Assembly: GCF_988243305.1 (NCBI RefSeq)
Contig: NZ_OZ547136.1
DNA length: 64,000 nucleotides
Reading direction: 5' to 3' (one strand)
Under the pieces are notes generated by a model, which was given only the letters and a program-made list of their open reading frames with translations, ran no database searches and was not told the DNA's origin. Shown here in pieces: positions 1 to 54,501 of this stretch (positions are counted from its first letter, which is position 1; each line of letters starts with the position of its first letter). The position numbers were made by a program, and so were the translations under genes.

Positions 1-1241
1 AGTGGCGGCCAGGCATGACGATGGACAAAATCATTGAGGAACTGGATAACACCGTGCGTCTGCCGGGGCTGGCGAATCTGTGGGTGCCGCCAATTCGTAA
101 CCGTATCGATATGCTCTCAACCGGCATTAAAAGCCCCATCGGCATTAAAGTTTCCGGCACTGTGCTGGCGGATATCGACGCGATGGCGGAGCAAATTGAA
201 GAAGTGGCGCGAACGGTGCCAGGCGTAGCTTCTGCGCTTGCCGAGCGTCTGGAAGGTGGGCGCTATATCAACGTTGAGATTAACCGTGAAAAAGCCGCGC
301 GTTACGGTATGACGGTGGCGGATGTGCAATTGTTTGTGACATCTGCGGTGGGCGGGGCGATGGTTGGCGAAACGGTGGAAGGGATTGCCCGTTATCCAAT
401 TAATCTGCGTTATCCGCAAAGCTGGCGCGATAGTCCGCAGGCGCTGCGCCAGTTGCCGATTCTGACGCCGATGAAGCAGCAAATCACCCTGGCAGACGTG
501 GCTGACGTTAAAGTCTCTACCGGACCGTCGATGCTGAAAACCGAGAATGCGCGCCCGACGAGCTGGATTTATATCGATGCCCGCGATCGTGACATGGTGT
601 CGGTGGTTCACGATCTGCAAAAAGCGATAGCTGAAAAAGTACAGTTAAAACCGGGCACCAGCGTGGCATTCTCCGGGCAGTTCGAGCTACTGGAACGCGC
701 CAACCATAAGCTGAAACTCATGGTGCCGATGACGCTGATGATCATCTTCGTGCTGTTATATCTGGCGTTCCGTCGGGTGGGCGAAGCGTTGCTGATTATC
801 AGCAGCGTACCGTTTGCGCTGGTGGGCGGCATCTGGTTGCTGTGGTGGATGGGCTTTCATCTTTCCGTGGCGACGGGCACCGGTTTTATTGCCCTCGCCG
901 GGGTTGCCGCCGAATTTGGCGTGGTGATGCTGATGTATTTACGTCACGCCATAGAGGCCGAGCCGTCGTTGAATAATCCGCAAACATTCAGCGAGCAGAA
1001 GCTGGATGAGGCGTTGTATCACGGCGCGGTCCTGCGCGTGCGCCCGAAAGCGATGACGGTGGCGGTGATTATCGCTGGTCTGCTGCCGATTCTGTGGGGA
1101 ACGGGAGCAGGTTCAGAGGTGATGAGCCGGATTGCCGCGCCGATGATTGGCGGCATGATCACCGCGCCTTTGCTATCGCTGTTTATTATCCCGGCGGCAT
1201 ATAAGCTGATGTGGCTGCACCGACATCGGGTACGGAAATAA
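1..1241 (+). CDS. cusA: Cu(I)/Ag(I) efflux RND transporter CusA, C-terminal fragment (5' end lies upstream of the window)
   Basis: ORF 15..1241 in frame from the window edge; multi-TM RND C-terminal domain; ends ...[12 protein letters not shown]. Confidence 0.9.
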
Positions 1242-1342
1242 AAGCAGGATACCCGGTTTAACCGTGTGGATTGTGTCTTGCGACGATGGGCACTAAATGT
1301 TAAAAGGTGCCCCTCAACAAAAAAGACACACAGGGGAAAGGC

Positions 1343-2719
1343 GTGAAAAACGCGTCAACCGTATCGGAAGATACTGCGTCGAATCAAGAGCCGACGCTTC
1401 ATCGCGGATTACATAACCGTCATATTCAACTGATTGCGCTGGGTGGCGCAATTGGTACTGGTCTGTTTCTTGGCATTGGCCCGGCGATTCAGATGGCGGG
1501 TCCGGCTGTATTGCTGGGCTACGGCGTCGCCGGGATCATCGCTTTCCTGATTATGCGCCAGCTCGGCGAGATGGTGGTCGAAGAGCCGGTATCCGGTTCA
1601 TTTGCCCACTTTGCCTATAAATACTGGGGACCGTTTGCGGGCTTCCTCTCTGGCTGGAACTACTGGGTGATGTTCGTGCTGGTGGGAATGGCAGAGCTGA
1701 CCGCTGCGGGCATCTATATGCAGTACTGGTTCCCGGATGTTCCAACGTGGATTTGGGCTGCCGCCTTCTTTATTATCATCAACGCCGTTAACCTGGTGAA
1801 CGTGCGCTTATATGGCGAAACCGAGTTCTGGTTTGCGCTGATAAAAGTGCTGGCAATCATCGGTATGATCGGCTTTGGCCTGTGGCTGCTGTTTTCTGGT
1901 CACGGCGGCGAGAAAGCCAGTATCGACAACCTCTGGCGCTACGGTGGTTTCTTTGCCACCGGCTGGAATGGGCTGATTTTGTCGCTGGCGGTGATTATGT
2001 TCTCCTTCGGCGGTCTGGAGCTGATTGGGATTACTGCCGCTGAAGCGCGCGATCCGGAAAAAAGCATTCCGAAAGCGGTAAATCAGGTGGTGTATCGCAT
2101 CCTGCTGTTTTATATCGGTTCACTGGTAGTTTTACTGGCACTCTATCCGTGGGTGGAAGTGAAATCCAACAGTAGCCCGTTTGTGATGATTTTCCATAAT
2201 CTCGACAGCAACGTGGTAGCTTCTGCGCTGAACTTCGTCATTCTGGTAGCATCGCTGTCAGTGTATAACAGCGGGGTTTACTCTAACAGCCGCATGCTGT
2301 TTGGCCTTTCTGTGCAGGGTAATGCGCCGAAGTTTTTGACTCGCGTCAGCCGTCGCGGCGTGCCGATTAACTCGCTGATGCTTTCCGGAGCGATCACTTC
2401 GCTGGTGGTGTTAATCAACTATCTGCTGCCGCAAAAAGCGTTTGGTCTGCTGATGGCGCTGGTGGTAGCAACGCTGCTGTTGAACTGGATTATGATCTGC
2501 CTGGCGCATCTGCGTTTTCGCGCGGCGATGCGACGTCAGGGACGTGAAACACAGTTTAAGGCGCTGCTCTATCCGTTCGGCAACTATCTCTGCATCGCCT
2601 TCCTCGGCATGATTTTGCTGCTGATGTGCACGATGGATGATATGCGCTTGTCAGCGATTCTGCTGCCAGTGTGGATTGTATTCCTGTTTGTAGCGTTTAA
2701 AACGCTGCGTCGGAAATAA
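1343..2719 (+). CDS. pheP: Phenylalanine-specific APC-family permease
   Basis: ORF 1307..2719; 12-TM amino acid permease; GTG at 1343 gives the 458-aa PheP length and follows a purine-rich RBS. Confidence 0.9.
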   Translation: MKNASTVSEDTASNQEPTLHRGLHNRHIQLIALGGAIGTGLFLGIGPAIQMAGPAVLLGYGVAGIIAFLIMRQLGEMVVEEPVSGSFAHFAYKYWGPFAGFLSGWNYWVMFVLVGMAELTAAGIYMQYWFPDVPTWIWAAAFFIIINAVNLVNVRLYGETEFWFALIKVLAIIGMIGFGLWLLFSGHGGEKASIDNLWRYGGFFATGWNGLILSLAVIMFSFGGLELIGITAAEARDPEKSIPKAVNQVVYRILLFYIGSLVVLLALYPWVEVKSNSSPFVMIFHNLDSNVVASALNFVILVASLSVYNSGVYSNSRMLFGLSVQGNAPKFLTRVSRRGVPINSLMLSGAITSLVVLINYLLPQKAFGLLMALVVATLLLNWIMICLAHLRFRAAMRRQGRETQFKALLYPFGNYLCIAFLGMILLLMCTMDDMRLSAILLPVWIVFLFVAFKTLRRK

Positions 2720-2750
2720 GGCATTCACGCTACATCCGACAAAACGATGT

Positions 2751-2784
2751 CCGCTCTCATCCATTCGATGAGAGCGGTTTTTTT
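2751..2784. terminator. Intrinsic terminator between convergent pheP and ybdG
   Basis: Hairpin ccgctctcatc / gatgagagcgg followed by a 7-T run. Confidence 0.6.
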
Positions 2785-2786
2785 AA

Positions 2787-4082
<1,296 letters not shown>

Positions 4083-4888: not shown

Positions 4889-5257
4889 TTAGCCTGGACG
4901 CACTCTTTTTTGATCGCGTTTAGCCAGACCATCAACCACCAGATTCCACGAATCGTTGATCAGATCGCGAAGTAACGCTTCGGAGATTTCCTCGCCGGGA
5001 TACACTGAAATCCAGTGCTTTTTATTCATGTGATATCCTGGCTTAATGCTCGGGTATATCTGCTGATTTAACAGGGATTTTTGTGGATCGGACTTCAAAT
5101 TGATAAAGGGAACGCCGCGCAGCTCTGACGACAACATAAAAATCTTGCCGCCAATTTTAAAAACATCGAACTCCGGCCCAAAAGGCCAGCAAAGCTCGAC
5201 AAAGGGTAACTCAAGGGCCAGGCGTTTCGCCGTTTCGTGCAGTGATTGCTTATCCAT
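4889..5257 (-). CDS. ybdF: Conserved protein YbdF
   Basis: ORF 4889..5377; start trimmed to [13 protein letters not shown] (122 aa). Confidence 0.85.
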
Positions 5258-5321
5258 AAACGTTCCTTTAGGCGAAGGAGAATAAGCAAAGTATGCCGCG
5301 AAGTTCGGCGATAATCGACGT

Positions 5322-5570
5322 TTAATCCGCCAGCGAGAACCAGCGTCGCCAGATAAAGCGCAGAACAAAATACTCAATAGCGCCCAGCACTAAAAACCAC
5401 AGACAAAACAATAAAGTGTAAAGCTGGCTAAGATCCATCAGATGGAACGTGGTCACCAGTTTTTGTGCCAGCGTCAGCCCCAATGCGGGGGCGGGAAGCA
5501 GCAGGCAAGAGAGGAAAGCCATCAGCAAAATGCCTGCTGCGGTGGTCAAGGTTTCTAAAGGGTGTTTCAT
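5322..5570 (-). CDS. ybdJ: Small membrane protein YbdJ
   Basis: 82-aa ORF with two hydrophobic segments. Confidence 0.85.
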
Positions 5571-5635
5571 AACATTGTTAAATGTAAGTTAAAACACCAT
5601 TGTCAGGGATATTCTTCTGTAAGGCAATTCCCGAC

Positions 5636-6763
<1,128 letters not shown>

Positions 6764-7045
6764 TTATGTTGGCGTTTTCTATTCAGTATAGAAGTGGGAG
6801 CGACTGGGCGAGATGCGGAAGTTCTGGAATGTTTTTTTTTGATGATGGTGACTGAAGCAAATTGGCTACATTTTGCAATATGACAAGTTATGGCAGTGCG
6901 GACTGGTGGCGAAGAATTTTGACGATTGAGGCATGCAGAAAAAACGGGTTCAGCTTCAGTTGATCAAATGAGGATTGAGAAGTCCGAAACAGGACTTACT
7001 GTATAAATAAACAGCTATTTTGCTAAGGAAGGGTAAGATAACGGC

Positions 7046-7110
7046 GGGTGCCTGAAGCTTTCCGGTTTCAGGTTTACTCTGAGGTCTGGAAAGATGAAGC
7101 CCCAGGACGA
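7046..7110 (-). ncRNA. sokE: Putative Sok antisense RNA, copy 1 (approximate coordinates)
   Basis: Inferred from hok/sok architecture: antisense to the mok translation-initiation region; candidate minus-strand -10 tagaaat at 7123..7117 and a weak -35. Confidence 0.3.
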
Positions 7111-7282
7111 TATTTCTATCAACCCTGGGGCTGCCACTCCAAACCCAAACAATTTGGATGGTAGTCCCTTCTTCGCATGGAGGCAATATAAACATGCTGA
7201 CGAAATATGCCCTTGCGGCAGTCATAGTGCTGTGTTTGACGGTGCTGGGATTTACGCTTCTGGTCGGAGACTCGCTGTGTGA
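7094..7282 (+). CDS. mokE: Mok (modulator of killing) overlapping reading frame, copy 1
   Basis: 62-aa ORF overlapping hok in another frame, as in hok/sok loci. Confidence 0.5.
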
Positions 7283-7346
7283 GTTTACGGTGAAGGAACG
7301 TAATATTGAGTTTAAGGCTGTTCTCGCTTACGAACCGAAGAAGTAG
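7194..7346 (+). CDS. hokE: Hok-family type I toxin (50 aa), copy 1
   Basis: [50 protein letters not shown]; single TM helix and conserved Hok C-terminus. Confidence 0.85.
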
Positions 7347-7418
7347 CCGTTGTGCGGGGAGTAATCCCCGCATATCCGGTTGTCAGGTCAGGGTGGTAAG
7401 GCACCTGCTTTACACTTT

Positions 7419-7446
7419 CGCCCGCGGTCAGCAATGGCTGCGGGCG
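7419..7446 (+). terminator. 3' stem-loop of hok mRNA copy 1 (terminator/fold-back region)
   Basis: cgcccgcggtcagcaatggctgcgggcg palindrome. Confidence 0.5.
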
Positions 7447-7549
7447 ATGTCGTTTTAAGGGCAATGATCAGTTTTGCCAACAGAAGTCCGAAACAGGATT
7501 CACTGTATAAATAAACAGCTATTTTGCTGAGGAAGGGTAAGATAACGGC

Positions 7550-7614
7550 GGGTGCCTGAAGCTTTCCGGTTTCAGGTTAACTCTGAGGTCTGGAAAGATG
7601 AAGCCCCAGGACGA
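7550..7614 (-). ncRNA. sokE: Putative Sok antisense RNA, copy 2 (approximate coordinates)
   Basis: Same position relative to mok/hok as copy 1. Confidence 0.3.
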
Positions 7615-7786
7615 TATTTCTATCAACCCTGGGGCTACCTACCCAAACCTGAACAATTTGGATGGTAGTCCCTTCTTCGCATGGAGGCAATATAAACATG
7701 CTGACGAAATATGCCCTTGTGGCAGTCATAGTGCTGTGTTTAACGGTGCTGGGATTTACGCTTCTGGTCGGAGACTCGCTGTGTGA
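7598..7786 (+). CDS. mokE: Mok overlapping reading frame, copy 2
   Basis: 62-aa ORF, 3 aa different from copy 1. Confidence 0.5.
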
Positions 7787-7850
7787 GTTTACGGTGAAGG
7801 AACGTAATATTGAGTTTAAGGCTGTTCTCGCTTACGAACCGAAGAAGTAG
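7698..7850 (+). CDS. hokE: Hok-family type I toxin (50 aa), copy 2
   Basis: [50 protein letters not shown]; one substitution (A8V) relative to copy 1. Confidence 0.85.
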
Positions 7851-7950
7851 CCGTTGTGCGGGGAGTAATCCCTTAAGTTAGCGCTTATGGGAGTAATCCC
7901 CGCATATCCGGTTGTCAGGTCAGGGTGGTAAGGCACCTGCTTTACACTTT

Positions 7951-7978
7951 CGCCCGCAGTCAGCATTGGCTGCGGGCG
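7951..7978 (+). terminator. 3' stem-loop of hok mRNA copy 2
   Basis: cgcccgcagtcagcattggctgcgggcg palindrome. Confidence 0.5.
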
Positions 7979-7999
7979 AATCGCTCCGGGTATTGTCAA

Positions 8000-8620
8000 T
8001 TAATCGTGTTGGCACAGCGTTATGACTATCTTTTCTTTTATCTGCCAGTGCACAGCAAACTGCTCATCCTCTAGTCGAATGATGATCTGCTGTTTATTCA
8101 AGCTAATTATCTGATAATCCAGAAATCCTGCATCAGTTTGTCTCTCCGATGCCTTAAATGCGCTCTCTTTGGCGGAAAATGCCAGTGTTAGCGCCAGAGA
8201 AAAGGTTAAACCGCATTCTGCGAGTCGCTCGTGTTCTGCTGGTGTAATAATGTTGTCTGTCAATTCTCTTGCGGTTTGTACAGAGAAAATCTCTTCGATA
8301 TCAATGCCAATCGGTTGACGAGATACCACGGCTAATGCCGTAGTCCCGCAGTGGCTAATACTGCCGTATACCTCCGCAGGCCACACAGGTTGGCGTAGCT
8401 CGCCGATAGCGGGCACATATTTATAGCCATATTCCCGCAAGGCATAAACAGCAGCGATTCGTCCAGCTAAATGCTCTGTTTTACGTTTACGTCCAGCGTG
8501 TTGCAGTTGTGCGTAGTGTGGCAGCCAGAGTAAATCCTGCTCGCGAAAACTCGCCGGATCGAACTTAACAAAATGCAGCGTATTTCCGGCAAAGGGGAGG
8601 GCGGTATGCGTAGTTTTCAT
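8000..8620 (-). CDS. entD: 4'-phosphopantetheinyl transferase for enterobactin synthase
   Basis: ORF 8000..8770; PPTase motifs PIGIDIEEI and FSAKESAFKA; start ambiguous (MKTTHT at 8620 or MVDMKTT at 8629). Confidence 0.85.
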   Translation of the reverse strand: MKTTHTALPFAGNTLHFVKFDPASFREQDLLWLPHYAQLQHAGRKRKTEHLAGRIAAVYALREYGYKYVPAIGELRQPVWPAEVYGSISHCGTTALAVVSRQPIGIDIEEIFSVQTARELTDNIITPAEHERLAECGLTFSLALTLAFSAKESAFKASERQTDAGFLDYQIISLNKQQIIIRLEDEQFAVHWQIKEKIVITLCQHD

Positions 8621-8655
8621 GTCGACCATATTAGAGACTGATGACAAACGCAAAA

Positions 8656-8755
8656 CTGCCTGATGCGCTACGCTTATCAGGCCTACGTGGTCCTGCAATA
8701 TATTGAATTGGCAAGATTTTTGTAGGCCGGATAAGGCGTTCACGCCGCATCCGGC
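8656..8755. repeat. REP/BIME element (two REP-type palindromic units) between entD and fepA
   Basis: gcctgatgcgctacgcttatcaggcctac and tgtaggccggataaggcgttcacgccgcatccggca match the enterobacterial REP consensus family. Confidence 0.75.
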
Positions 8756-8794
8756 ATGAACTACGCGCACTTTGTCAACAATCTGACGTTAGCA

Positions 8795-11035
8795 TCAGAA
8801 GTGAGTATTAATGCTCATATACCACGTACGTCCCGGCTCGTTATAGGTATATGCCCCGGCACCGGCGATATAGTTGGCTCCTGCCAGATCGCCTGTGGTC
8901 TGGGCATTACCCGCACGCCACAAACGTTTGTCGAACAGGTTGTCCACGCCGCCGGTCAGACTGACATTCTTCGTTACATCCCAGGTCGCGCTCAGGCCAA
9001 CAATGCTGTACGGGCTGATTTCTTTGGTTTCCGGTCCAACCGCTGGCTGACCTTTATAGTTGTACTTCTTCGGCTGCTGCTTGCCGTACCAGGTGAAGGT
9101 TGTTTGCATCGACAAATCTTCCCGTGCCTGCCAGCTCAGCGTTGAGTTCAACGTATACTCCGGGATGATCGACAAACGGTCGCCCGTGGTTTTGTTTTCA
9201 CTCTTCAGCATATAAGTGATGTTATTGGTCCACATCACCGTTTCGCTAACCGGTACGTTTAACGATCCTTCCAGACCTTCAACCACCGCTTTCGGTACGT
9301 TATCCCACTGATAGAGATCGGTGCCGACTGCGTTTTGCCCTACAGCCACATAGCCCGCTTCAATCTTATTGCGATAATCGTTACGGAACCAGGTGACGCC
9401 CGCCAGCCAGCCGTCGCGTTTGAACTCCAGACCAATCTCTTTGTTGATGCTGGTTTCTGCTTTCAGGTCATCATTACCTTGCAGATAGCAGCCGCCCGCG
9501 CTGGCATAGCAGCCCTGACCTTTACTGTAGAGAATGTAGTTCGGGTTAGTCTGGTACAGACTCGGCGCTTTATAAGCACGGGCAATGCCCATTTTCAGCG
9601 TGAAGTCATCGCCTAAACCTTGCGAGATGTTCAGCGCCGGACTCCAGTTATTGCCAACAATGCTGTGATGATCGAAACGCAGCCCCGGCGTTACGATGGT
9701 GCTGTCAGTCAGCTCCATATTGTTTTCGGCAAATAGCGAGAAAATTTCTGCTTTTGAATACGGGCTACGGTCGGTGGCACTCACGCCATCAATAGCACCG
9801 CCGGTATTCGTCCCAGTGAGCGCCTGGGTGTTGGAACTTAAATCCTTCATCCGCTGCTGATTCCACTCCGTACCCAGCGTCAGCGTCTGGTTAACGAGGA
9901 AATCAATCGGCAGGTTAACTTCGCTGTGCAGCATCACGTCATCGAGATCGATATCGACGAAATCCTGTGTCGCTTTTTCGTTAAATTTCCCTTCGGTACC
10001 GCCCGCCAGACCTTCCGGAATACGCGAGTTACGGGTGTGTTCGTACTGCACCCAGTTGCTGGTGGTCACGCCGTTATCCCAGCCGCCGTTCCATGTCAGC
10101 GAGTAGTTCTGGCGATACAGACGGTTGGTTTCATCGCCATATTTCGAGCGGGTATAGGAGTCAGAGTTGGTGTTCTGGGTGTCGCCCGCATACAGGTTAC
10201 CCTGGCGGCTGTAGCCCGCTTCCAGTTCGAGTGATTGCAGAGGCGCGAAGTCCCAGCGCACTACGCCATTAATATCTTTGTTAATTACCCCTTCGCGCCC
10301 GGCTGGTAACGTCGTGGCATACGTTCCGGCACGCGCGGACTGATGGCCCTGGTTGATATCCCACGCGTCAGCCTGGGTTTTGTCGAGGTTGCCATACAAG
10401 CGGAAGCTGAATTCGTCGCCCAGCGGACCGGTCAGGCTGAAGTTGGTGCGTTTAGTGGCACCTTCCTCTTTATGTTCTGGCGCATTGAAATAAGCGTCCC
10501 AGGAGCCGTGCCACTCACCGCTGCCTTTTTTGGTAATGATGTTAACCACGCCGCCCGCCGCGCCGTTGCCATAACGCGCAGCTGCCGGACCACGCAGAAC
10601 TTCAATACGTTCAATCATTTCAGGTGGCACCCAGGAAGTATCACCACGGGTATCGCGCTCGCCACGCCAGCCCTGACGCACCGAGTTACGGCTGCTTACC
10701 GGTTTGCCGTCAATCAAAATCAGCGTGTTTTCCGGACCCATGCCGCGAATATCAATCTGGCGGTTATTACCACGCTGACCACTGGTGGAGTTGCCGGTCA
10801 GGTTAACGCCTGGCATGGTACGGATGATCTCCGACACATCGCGGGCAACCGGGTTTTTGCGGATTTCATCTGCGGTGATGGTCGAAACGCCAGGTGCCTG
10901 CAAGTTCTGCTCGGCGGCGGTAACGACAATGGTATCGTCATGTGAAACAGGAGTATCGGTCGGCTCTTGTGCCTGTGCTACCCCATAAATCCCCAGATTG
11001 ACCAACAAGGCCAGGGAATGAATCTTCTTGTTCAT
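8795..11035 (-). CDS. fepA: TonB-dependent ferric enterobactin outer-membrane receptor
   Basis: ORF 8795..11092; start MNKKIHSLALL with signal peptide; TonB box DTIVVTA; C-terminal aromatic terminus ...NTHF. Confidence 0.95.
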   Translation of the reverse strand: MNKKIHSLALLVNLGIYGVAQAQEPTDTPVSHDDTIVVTAAEQNLQAPGVSTITADEIRKNPVARDVSEIIRTMPGVNLTGNSTSGQRGNNRQIDIRGMGPENTLILIDGKPVSSRNSVRQGWRGERDTRGDTSWVPPEMIERIEVLRGPAAARYGNGAAGGVVNIITKKGSGEWHGSWDAYFNAPEHKEEGATKRTNFSLTGPLGDEFSFRLYGNLDKTQADAWDINQGHQSARAGTYATTLPAGREGVINKDINGVVRWDFAPLQSLELEAGYSRQGNLYAGDTQNTNSDSYTRSKYGDETNRLYRQNYSLTWNGGWDNGVTTSNWVQYEHTRNSRIPEGLAGGTEGKFNEKATQDFVDIDLDDVMLHSEVNLPIDFLVNQTLTLGTEWNQQRMKDLSSNTQALTGTNTGGAIDGVSATDRSPYSKAEIFSLFAENNMELTDSTIVTPGLRFDHHSIVGNNWSPALNISQGLGDDFTLKMGIARAYKAPSLYQTNPNYILYSKGQGCYASAGGCYLQGNDDLKAETSINKEIGLEFKRDGWLAGVTWFRNDYRNKIEAGYVAVGQNAVGTDLYQWDNVPKAVVEGLEGSLNVPVSETVMWTNNITYMLKSENKTTGDRLSIIPEYTLNSTLSWQAREDLSMQTTFTWYGKQQPKKYNYKGQPAVGPETKEISPYSIVGLSATWDVTKNVSLTGGVDNLFDKRLWRAGNAQTTGDLAGANYIAGAGAYTYNEPGRTWYMSINTHF

Positions 11036-36858: not shown

Positions 36859-37139
36859 TAATTTGTCCTTTTCAGTCAGTGCAAAAGTCGGGTAAAAGGC
36901 ATAACCTATCACTGTCATAGGTAAGAGCTTAGATCAGGTGATTGCCCTTTGTTTATGAGGGTGTTGTAATCCATGTCGTTGTTGCATTTGTAAGGGCAAC
37001 ACCTCAGCCTGCAGGCAGGCGCTGAAGATACCAAAGGGTAGTTCAGATTACACGGTCACCTGGAAAGGGGGCCATTTTACTTTTTATCGCCGCTGGCGGT
37101 GCAAAGTTCACAAAGTTGTCTTACGAAGGTTGTAAGGTA

Positions 37140-40918: not shown

Positions 40919-41147
40919 TTTTACTCCATGTCGTCGGTACTGCGAGTGTCGCAGATAAACATACCCAAAAGAAAACCCTCACCGTCAGGCGGCGAGGGTT
41001 TAACTCACATGATGATACTGACTGTTGCTCACTCTTTGAAGTGATTTGCGTCACATTCAGGGAATTCCTCAATGTAGCGCATTATGTATAAATCTTAATC
41101 GTCATGGTTTATGGAAGACGAATTAGCGTGTTTTGTAAATCAGAGGA

Positions 41148-54069: not shown

Positions 54070-54243
54070 GACAAATGAAATTTTAGTAAACTCTTTAAAA
54101 TCAATGAGTAAAATAATTAACATCAAAAATAACGCGACTTTTATCACTTTTTAGTAAAGTTGCACTGGACAAAGCGTACCACAATTGGTGTACTGGTAAC
54201 CGACACAGCATTTGTGTCTATTTTTCATGTAAAGGTAATTTTG

Positions 54244-54453
54244 ATGTCTAAGATTAAAGGTAACGTTAAGTGGTTTAATGAGTCCAAAGGATTCGGTTTC
54301 ATTACTCCGGAAGACGGCAGCAAAGACGTGTTCGTACACTTCTCTGCAATCCAGACTAATGGTTTTAAAACTCTTGCTGAAGGTCAGCGCGTAGAGTTCG
54401 AAATCACTAACGGTGCCAAAGGCCCTTCTGCTGCAAACGTAATCGCTCTGTAA
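54244..54453 (+). CDS. cspE: Cold-shock domain protein
   Basis: 69 aa from [12 protein letters not shown]; RNP motifs KGFGFI and VFVHF. Confidence 0.9.
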
Positions 54454-54471
54454 GATACGTCAGCAAGAATT

Positions 54472-54501
54472 CAAAACCCGCTTAATCAGCGGGTTTTTTT
54501 T
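54472..54501. terminator. Bidirectional intrinsic terminator between cspE and crcB
   Basis: aaaacccgc ttaatca gcgggtttttttt. Confidence 0.7.

Follow-up and report, generated by a model that had tools for sequence, protein, structure and literature searches.

Translation of hok toxin mRNAs is governed by a structural switch, in which the 5′ end of the mRNA refolds after truncation of the 3′ end (PMC9841398). In the truncated, translatable hok mRNA of plasmid R1, the 3′ terminal stem is a GC-rich stem-loop located after the stop codon, which protects the RNA against 3′ exonucleases; 19 of 22 loss-of-function substitutions in the R1 hok 3′ UTR break C-G pairs of this stem-loop, and the truncated RNA vanishes (PMC9841398). 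Hok genes also occur in tandem, such as the hok-2.1/2.2 pair in strain NRG857c (PMC7232551), and islets of two to six genes hold ~10% of Hok genes (bioRxiv 10.1101/2025.08.07.668861). According to Pedersen and Gerdes (1999, cited in PMC7232551), IS insertions, point mutations, or rearrangements have left the hok loci of Escherichia coli K-12 non-functional, and the preferred target of IS186 is given as 5′-GGGG(N6/N7)CCCC (PMC6925257, which cites Chong 1985 and SaiSree 2001). In K-12, a single hokE gene is followed by a complete IS186 of 1339 bp with an annotated IS4-like IS421-family transposase. The two junctions read ...GTGCGG GGAGTAATCC|CATAAGCGCTAACTTAAGGGTTG... and ...CAACCCTTAAGTTAGCGCTTATG|GGAGTAATCC CCGCAT..., and the two ends of the element are identical over 23 bp.

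The window analyzed here is a 64,000-nucleotide stretch of contig NZ_OZ547136.1, which over positions 5000–10000 shares 100% identity with E. coli Z1323HEC0462. The gene order around the locus is nfsB-ybdF-ybdJ-ybdK-hokE-hokE-entD-fepA, and hokE is annotated twice at the identical locus in RefSeq. A tandem hokE/sokE duplication occupies 6978–7980 (+), as delineated by the repeat families D1 and D2, the pairwise alignment A1, and Rfam sok matches. The two units start at ~6978 and ~7482, and their spacing of 504 bp increases to 532 bp downstream of the insertion described below. Each copy encodes an intact 50-aa Hok/Gef protein (Pfam PF01848, HOK_GEF, 32.1 and 34 bits for copies 1 and 2, cut-off 22); the coding sequences, supported by the ORF list, Pfam, and RefSeq, lie at 7194–7346 (+) and 7698–7850 (+), the latter comprising 50 codons and the stop codon at 7848–7850. 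Mok-like leader frames of 62 aa in the ORF list, at 7094–7282 and 7598–7786, overlap the hok starts, and Rfam RF01794 (sok) matches at 7046–7202 and 7550–7706 with 82.4 and 84.1 bits (gathering score 59). This 157-nt model matches the plus strand, which is the sense of the hok mRNA, and not the antisense strand expected for Sok transcription. The other Rfam matches in the window are unrelated to the insertion: the rnk leader (40964–41072, −), a cspA-type thermoregulator (54143–54501, +), STnc70 (36992–37085, +), and ES036 (8679–8720, −).

Two-copy hokE arrays are common, with at least 80% of a two-copy query covered in 3373 of 5426 complete E. coli genomes. As in the tandem hok islets, the duplication beside ybdK and entD is therefore an ordinary arrangement, and the only rare part of this locus is the insertion in the distal copy. 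When the two units are aligned, they differ by one 28-nt gap, and the rest of the 470-nt unit is ~97% identical. Six of the 14 substitutions between the units crowd into 15 nt, at 7133–7147 (GCTGCCACTCCAAACCCAAAC) in copy 1 and 7637–7651 (GCTACCTACCCAAACCTGAAC) in copy 2. This cluster overlaps both the mok leader and the presumed target region of Sok, and it might make each antisense RNA specific to its own hokE copy.

The hairpin region of copy 1 (7352–7373) reads gtgcggggagtaatccccgcatatccgg, whereas the corresponding region of copy 2 reads gtgcggggagtaatcccttaagttagcgcttatgggagtaatccccgcatatccgg; the strings quoted for both copies in the initial annotation are exact on re-reading of the sequence. 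That annotation placed an insertion of ~26 bp at 7874–7899. The insertion itself holds, but its size and limits do not: it measures 28 bp, and its natural parse, 7872–7899, is two bases longer at the left. The exact placement of the gap is ambiguous because of the flanking repeat. The motif said to be reiterated around the insert, GGGAGTAATCC, indeed stands on both sides of it; it occurs three times in the window (7357, 7861, and 7889) and not once in 100 shuffles. What the annotation missed is the identity of the inserted segment and of the reiterated motif, which are part of an IS186 terminal inverted repeat and an IS186 target-site duplication, respectively. The complete string in copy 2 is GTGCGG GGAGTAATCC CTTAAGTTAGCGCTTATG GGAGTAATCC CCGCAT. 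Its left 10-bp duplication (7862–7871) is identical to the duplication at the IS186 in K-12 hokE, as is the right copy (7890–7899), and between them lies CTTAAGTTAGCGCTTATG (7872–7889), which corresponds to the final 18 bp of the 23-bp inverted repeat at the IS186 termini. The 10 bp of duplication and 18 bp of remnant account for the entire 28-bp insertion. The remnant, whose minus strand reads CATAAGCGCTAACTTAAG, matches both K-12 IS186 ends at 18 of 18 positions; of the 23 positions of the repeat CATAAGCGCTAACTTAAGGGTTG, 18 are present and the inner 5 bp are deleted. It is the sole match to an IS186 end in the window, in which 0.03 matches would be expected even with three mismatches allowed.

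The window thus holds a single 18-bp end, with no transposase gene and no second IS186 end, and the segment is therefore a footprint and not an insertion sequence. Because both IS186 ends share the same 23 bp, the remnant does not reveal which way round the element once lay. Taken as a whole, the 28 bases are very probably the footprint of an IS186 (IS4 family) that hit its preferred hairpin target and was later almost wholly deleted. The short direct repeat flanking the extra bases would also be expected from local slippage, that is, a tandem duplication of GGGAGTAATCC with random filler and no mobile element. We rejected this explanation as having almost no chance of being correct, since the supposed filler matches the IS186 terminal repeat at 18 of 18 positions and abuts the duplication exactly as the full element does at the same position in ~2570 genomes. 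A MITE derived from IS186 was likewise considered and rejected: there is a single partial end, which occurs once in the window and among genomes is found only at this locus.

The site of the IS186 footprint is also the one expected for this element. The intact hairpin of copy 1 (GUGCGGGGA-GUAA-UCCCCGCAU, 7352–7373, +), with the overall form GCGGGGA-GUAA-UCCCCGC, begins eight bases past the hokE stop codon and represents an empty IS186 target; the empty site reads GGGGAGTAATCCCC, and its core GGGG-AGTAAT-CCCC fits GGGG(N6)CCCC. The full IS186 in K-12 hokE occupies the same nucleotide position as the footprint and is flanked by the same duplication GGAGTAATCC. Compared with K-12, only 18 bp of one terminal repeat is left in the window, and hokE is again contiguous with its own 3′ elements. 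The homologous hairpin is occupied in K-12 hokC (NZ_CP009644.1, 14800–17600), in which an IS186 with junctions at ~590 and ~1930 of that segment interrupts the post-stop hairpin GGCGGGGA-GUGA-UCCCCGCC. The 10-bp duplication at hokC is GGAGTGATCC, and the orientation of the element relative to hok is opposite to that at hokE. In addition, an IS186 with a frameshifted transposase adjoins a hokD-like gene in plasmid NZ_CP100960.1 (1170–2545). Its flanks, GGATCTCTCC and GGAGTAATCC, differ from each other, which suggests recombination between IS186 copies.

We surveyed the hokE site in 5426 complete E. coli genomes and found IS186 in either orientation in ~47%, an empty site in ~53%, and the footprint in two. 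The right junction of IS186 in the K-12 orientation was present in 1730 of these genomes and the opposite orientation in 842, for example in ST540 (NZ_CP007391.1, IS at ~2690–4030), while the entD-proximal site was empty in 2898. The occurrence of both orientations at one nucleotide position implies that IS186 inserted here independently at least twice. The occupation of this hairpin in many genomes and in both orientations, together with the hokC insertion, identifies the post-stop hairpin of chromosomal hok genes as an IS186 hot spot. A full IS186 here splits the post-stop stem and separates hok from its fold-back element, which fits the view of the K-12 hok loci as non-functional. The comparison with hokE loci of other strains, which had been suggested as a way to recognize the ancestral state, points to a polarity in which hairpins without the element represent the ancestral state, the occupied state arose from these, and the footprint arose in turn from an occupied site.

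The two complete genomes with the footprint are Z1323HEC0462 and 2012C-4221. The latter (NZ_CP027437.1, 346–1505) contains three tandem hokE copies with slightly different Hok proteins, and the footprint is present only in the entD-proximal copy. In a third carrier, the metagenome contig OGTB01002231.1 (8607–8644), hokE is present as a single copy that bears the footprint and is followed by a downstream flank resembling that of K-12. In this contig the 5′ arm of the hairpin carries a C-to-T change (GTGTGGGGA), C-to-U in the RNA, and the stem pair is kept as G-U. The footprint is identical in all three carriers, on three different flank and copy-number backgrounds. Insertion sequences are a classic source of assembly errors, and one complete genome, HS-02 (discussed below), has an odd, artefact-like T17 run in its hokC hairpin, so that a full IS186 collapsed during assembly was considered as the source of the footprint. 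This is very improbable: two complete genomes that were sequenced independently and differ in hokE copy number share the same footprint with an unrelated metagenome contig, and the ends of IS186 are inverted, not direct, repeats, whose collapse would not leave just one 18-bp end.

The differences in copy number among the carriers of the footprint are easily explained by unequal crossing-over upstream of it, and their differing downstream haplotypes require recombination or recurrence. Among the sampled occupied genomes, we found no IS186-occupied allele with the downstream flank haplotype of the window (the best reached 94.8%), so that the direct parent of the footprint allele was not seen; VCSW5 and VCSW7, the closest relatives at the locus, have empty sites. 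At the hokC IS186 site, we searched for a comparable footprint in each of its two possible forms and found none. The sole full-length match in that search, HS-02 (NZ_CP172818.1, 176–205), has a hairpin broken by CA + T17 + GGGAGA, which reflects an assembly artefact or a scar of another kind, and the hokC site of 97-3250 is empty. A mirror-image footprint at hokE was likewise not seen among the best 12 of 24 full-coverage matches, all of which are two-piece joins ~535 bp apart. The lack of a footprint at hokC and of a mirror image among these 12 matches at hokE tentatively favors a single origin of the footprint followed by recombination.

Nearly precise excision, known from composite transposons (Tn10/IS10), removes the DNA between two short direct repeats located within, or at the edge of, the terminal inverted repeats, and the remnant left by Tn10/IS10 is small, palindromic, and flanked by the target duplication. 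In the footprint, the deletion end-points likewise lie in short direct repeats (CCC) at or within the terminal inverted repeats, and both copies of the duplication are kept. The deletion type thus appears similar, although the repeat is only 3 bp here and the remnant consists of one partial end. We infer the following order of events. IS186 would have inserted into the GGGG(N6)CCCC hairpin past the hokE stop codon, duplicating 10 bp (GGAGTAATCC), and 1321 of its 1339 bp would later have been lost between two CCC microhomologies. The left CCC would be formed by the end of the left duplication and the first base of the IS (TCC|C), and the right CCC would lie inside the right inverted repeat (ACC|C, within CAACC|CTTAAG). 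Such a deletion would leave 18 bp of one inverted repeat between both copies of the duplication and would rejoin the hokE-2 reading frame to the fold-back element and the terminal stem-loop.

The likely route of the deletion is replication slippage, in the sense of a slipped-strand or microhomology-mediated deletion, with the 23-bp terminal inverted repeats bringing the ends together. It is the simplest route. Canonical cut-and-paste excision would remove the IS entirely, and recombination between inverted ends does not produce a deletion. The microhomology is just 3 bp, and the mechanism is therefore weakly constrained. All IS186 duplications follow the pattern GG-N6-CC, and AACCC|TTAAG is part of the inverted repeat, so that the CCC microhomology is built into every insertion. 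The footprint could instead stem from the IS186 transposase, if an aberrant or one-ended cut was repaired by microhomology-mediated end joining. Given the 3-bp ambiguity, one end of the deletion can be placed exactly at the left tip of the IS, and an identical footprint on three backgrounds could mean a stereotyped reaction. Against this, canonical excision by the transposase would leave zero IS sequence, and the aberrant reaction needs 0 bp of resection of one flank and 1321 bp on the IS side. An equivalent 18-bp footprint is also missing at the hokC IS186 site, as is a mirror image at hokE among the best 12 of 24 matches, all two-piece joins. We therefore regard a transposase-made footprint as unlikely, at perhaps one chance in several, and slippage or microhomology-mediated deletion as the better account.

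We then considered the footprint in the context of the hokE mRNA and folded this mRNA and, separately, an R1-like locus. A consensus promoter scan of 6900–8050 found no sigma-70 sites, and the transcript starts were therefore placed by homology and pairing. The modelled transcripts start at GGCGGGUGCC (7043 and 7547) and run past the terminal stem-loop. From the pair probabilities, the 5′ pairing element and the fold-back element of the copy 1 mRNA are predicted at 7043–7052 (+) and 7400–7409 (+). The predicted counterparts in copy 2 are the 5′ element at 7547–7556 (+; GGCGGGUGCC, pair probabilities 0.75–1.0, with a putative 5′ end) and the fold-back inhibitory element at 7932–7941 (+; GGCACCUGCU), 33 nt 3′ of the footprint. 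A terminal GC-rich stem-loop follows at 7949–7980 (+; inverted repeat I4 and folds), terminator-like in shape but without a U tract. This stem-loop is convergent with entD, and its copy 1 counterpart at 7417–7447 is followed by a short T run and has a terminator-like score.

In the R1-like locus, the stem-loop GGCGGGC-GCAG-GCCCGCC begins 10 nt past the hok stop codon. The stem-loops of R1 and hokE share a GC-rich stem of 7–9 bp, a tetraloop, and a position 8–10 nt past the stop codon; in both cases an outer helix surrounds the stem-loop, and the fold-back element lies further downstream. By this position, the hokE hairpin may have a protective role like that of R1. In contrast to R1, the stem-loop of copy 2 bears a 28-nt apical extension. 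In the minimum-energy fold, the extended hairpin of copy 2 (7856–7905, +) keeps the outer stem GUGCGGGGA/UCCCCGCAU, and the footprint is predicted to form an extra upper stem, UCCC.UAAGU-UAGC-GCUUA.GGGA, in the apical loop, leaving the basal stem untouched. The minimum energy of the hairpin is −16.7 kcal/mol in copy 1 and −28.9 kcal/mol in copy 2 with the footprint, and this extended hairpin recurs whether the region is folded locally or as part of the full-length or truncated mRNA.

Both full-length mRNAs are predicted to adopt the same closed fold, in which GGCACCUGCU is paired with the first ten nucleotides of the transcript. For these ten tac/fbi pairs, the predicted probabilities (0.75–1.0) do not differ between copy 1, copy 2, and copy 2 minus the 28 nt. 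When the mRNA is truncated before the fold-back element, the 5′ end refolds to a local hairpin in all three versions, as the hok switch predicts. Outside the hairpin, the minimum-energy structures of the full-length and truncated mRNAs are unchanged with and without the 28 nt. The footprint sits at the hairpin tip and is predicted only to lengthen the hairpin; the closed and open conformations of the mRNA are therefore predicted to be unchanged, and the 5′–3′ fold-back switch is predicted to remain intact. As contiguity is restored and the base of the stem is kept, hokE-2 is predicted to be structurally competent.

These folds bear on the functional proposal of the initial annotation, that the insertion alters the hok 3′ region and its fold-back inhibition, so that copy 2 would be activated with kinetics different from those of copy 1. 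The segment does lie, as had been stated, in the 3′ region of the copy 2 transcript, within the predicted 3′ UTR between the stop codon (7848–7850) and the predicted fold-back element (7932–7941). It is also part of the stem-loop that, in R1, must be intact for truncated hok mRNA to accumulate (PMC9841398). The predicted gain in hairpin stability, 12 kcal/mol, could make 3′ exonucleolytic trimming slower or alter the half-life of the mRNA. The predicted tac/fbi pairing, on the other hand, does not respond to the 28 nt, the folds change nowhere beyond the hairpin tip, and the protective stem keeps its base. The comparison of full-length and truncated mRNAs for both copies that the annotation had proposed was thus carried out, and it returned the outcome named there as contradicting the idea, namely predicted 5′–3′ pairing that is unaffected by the insertion. 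Moreover, a transposon scar can arise without any selection for function, and the allele is very rare (2 of 5426 genomes). An altered regulation of copy 2 is thus improbable, and we infer that the footprint is functionally neutral. Because it sits in the protecting stem-loop, the footprint may still affect 3′ processing, 3′ trimming, or the stability of the truncated mRNA.

The footprint is an ordinary mobile-element scar, a fresh instance of a well-known kind at an already known IS186 target site. The IS186 hot spot is the structured 3′ stem-loop of the chromosomal hok mRNA, which is occupied in about half of E. coli genomes, and it helps explain why so many chromosomal hok loci are disrupted by IS elements. 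In K-12 the full IS186 separates hokE from its 3′ regulatory elements, and the footprint rejoins them. A more far-reaching reading, doubtful when its parts are taken together, is that the footprint records the natural resurrection of an IS-inactivated toxin–antitoxin locus, that the lengthened hairpin changes the stability or processing of the truncated hokE-2 mRNA, and that the 18-bp footprint may be a stereotyped exit route of IS186. If true, a stereotyped exit via the built-in CCC/GGG microhomology would explain the occurrence of the footprint on three haplotype backgrounds. The footprint allele also provides a ready natural variant for gauging how much apical extension is tolerated by the protective hok 3′ stem-loop.
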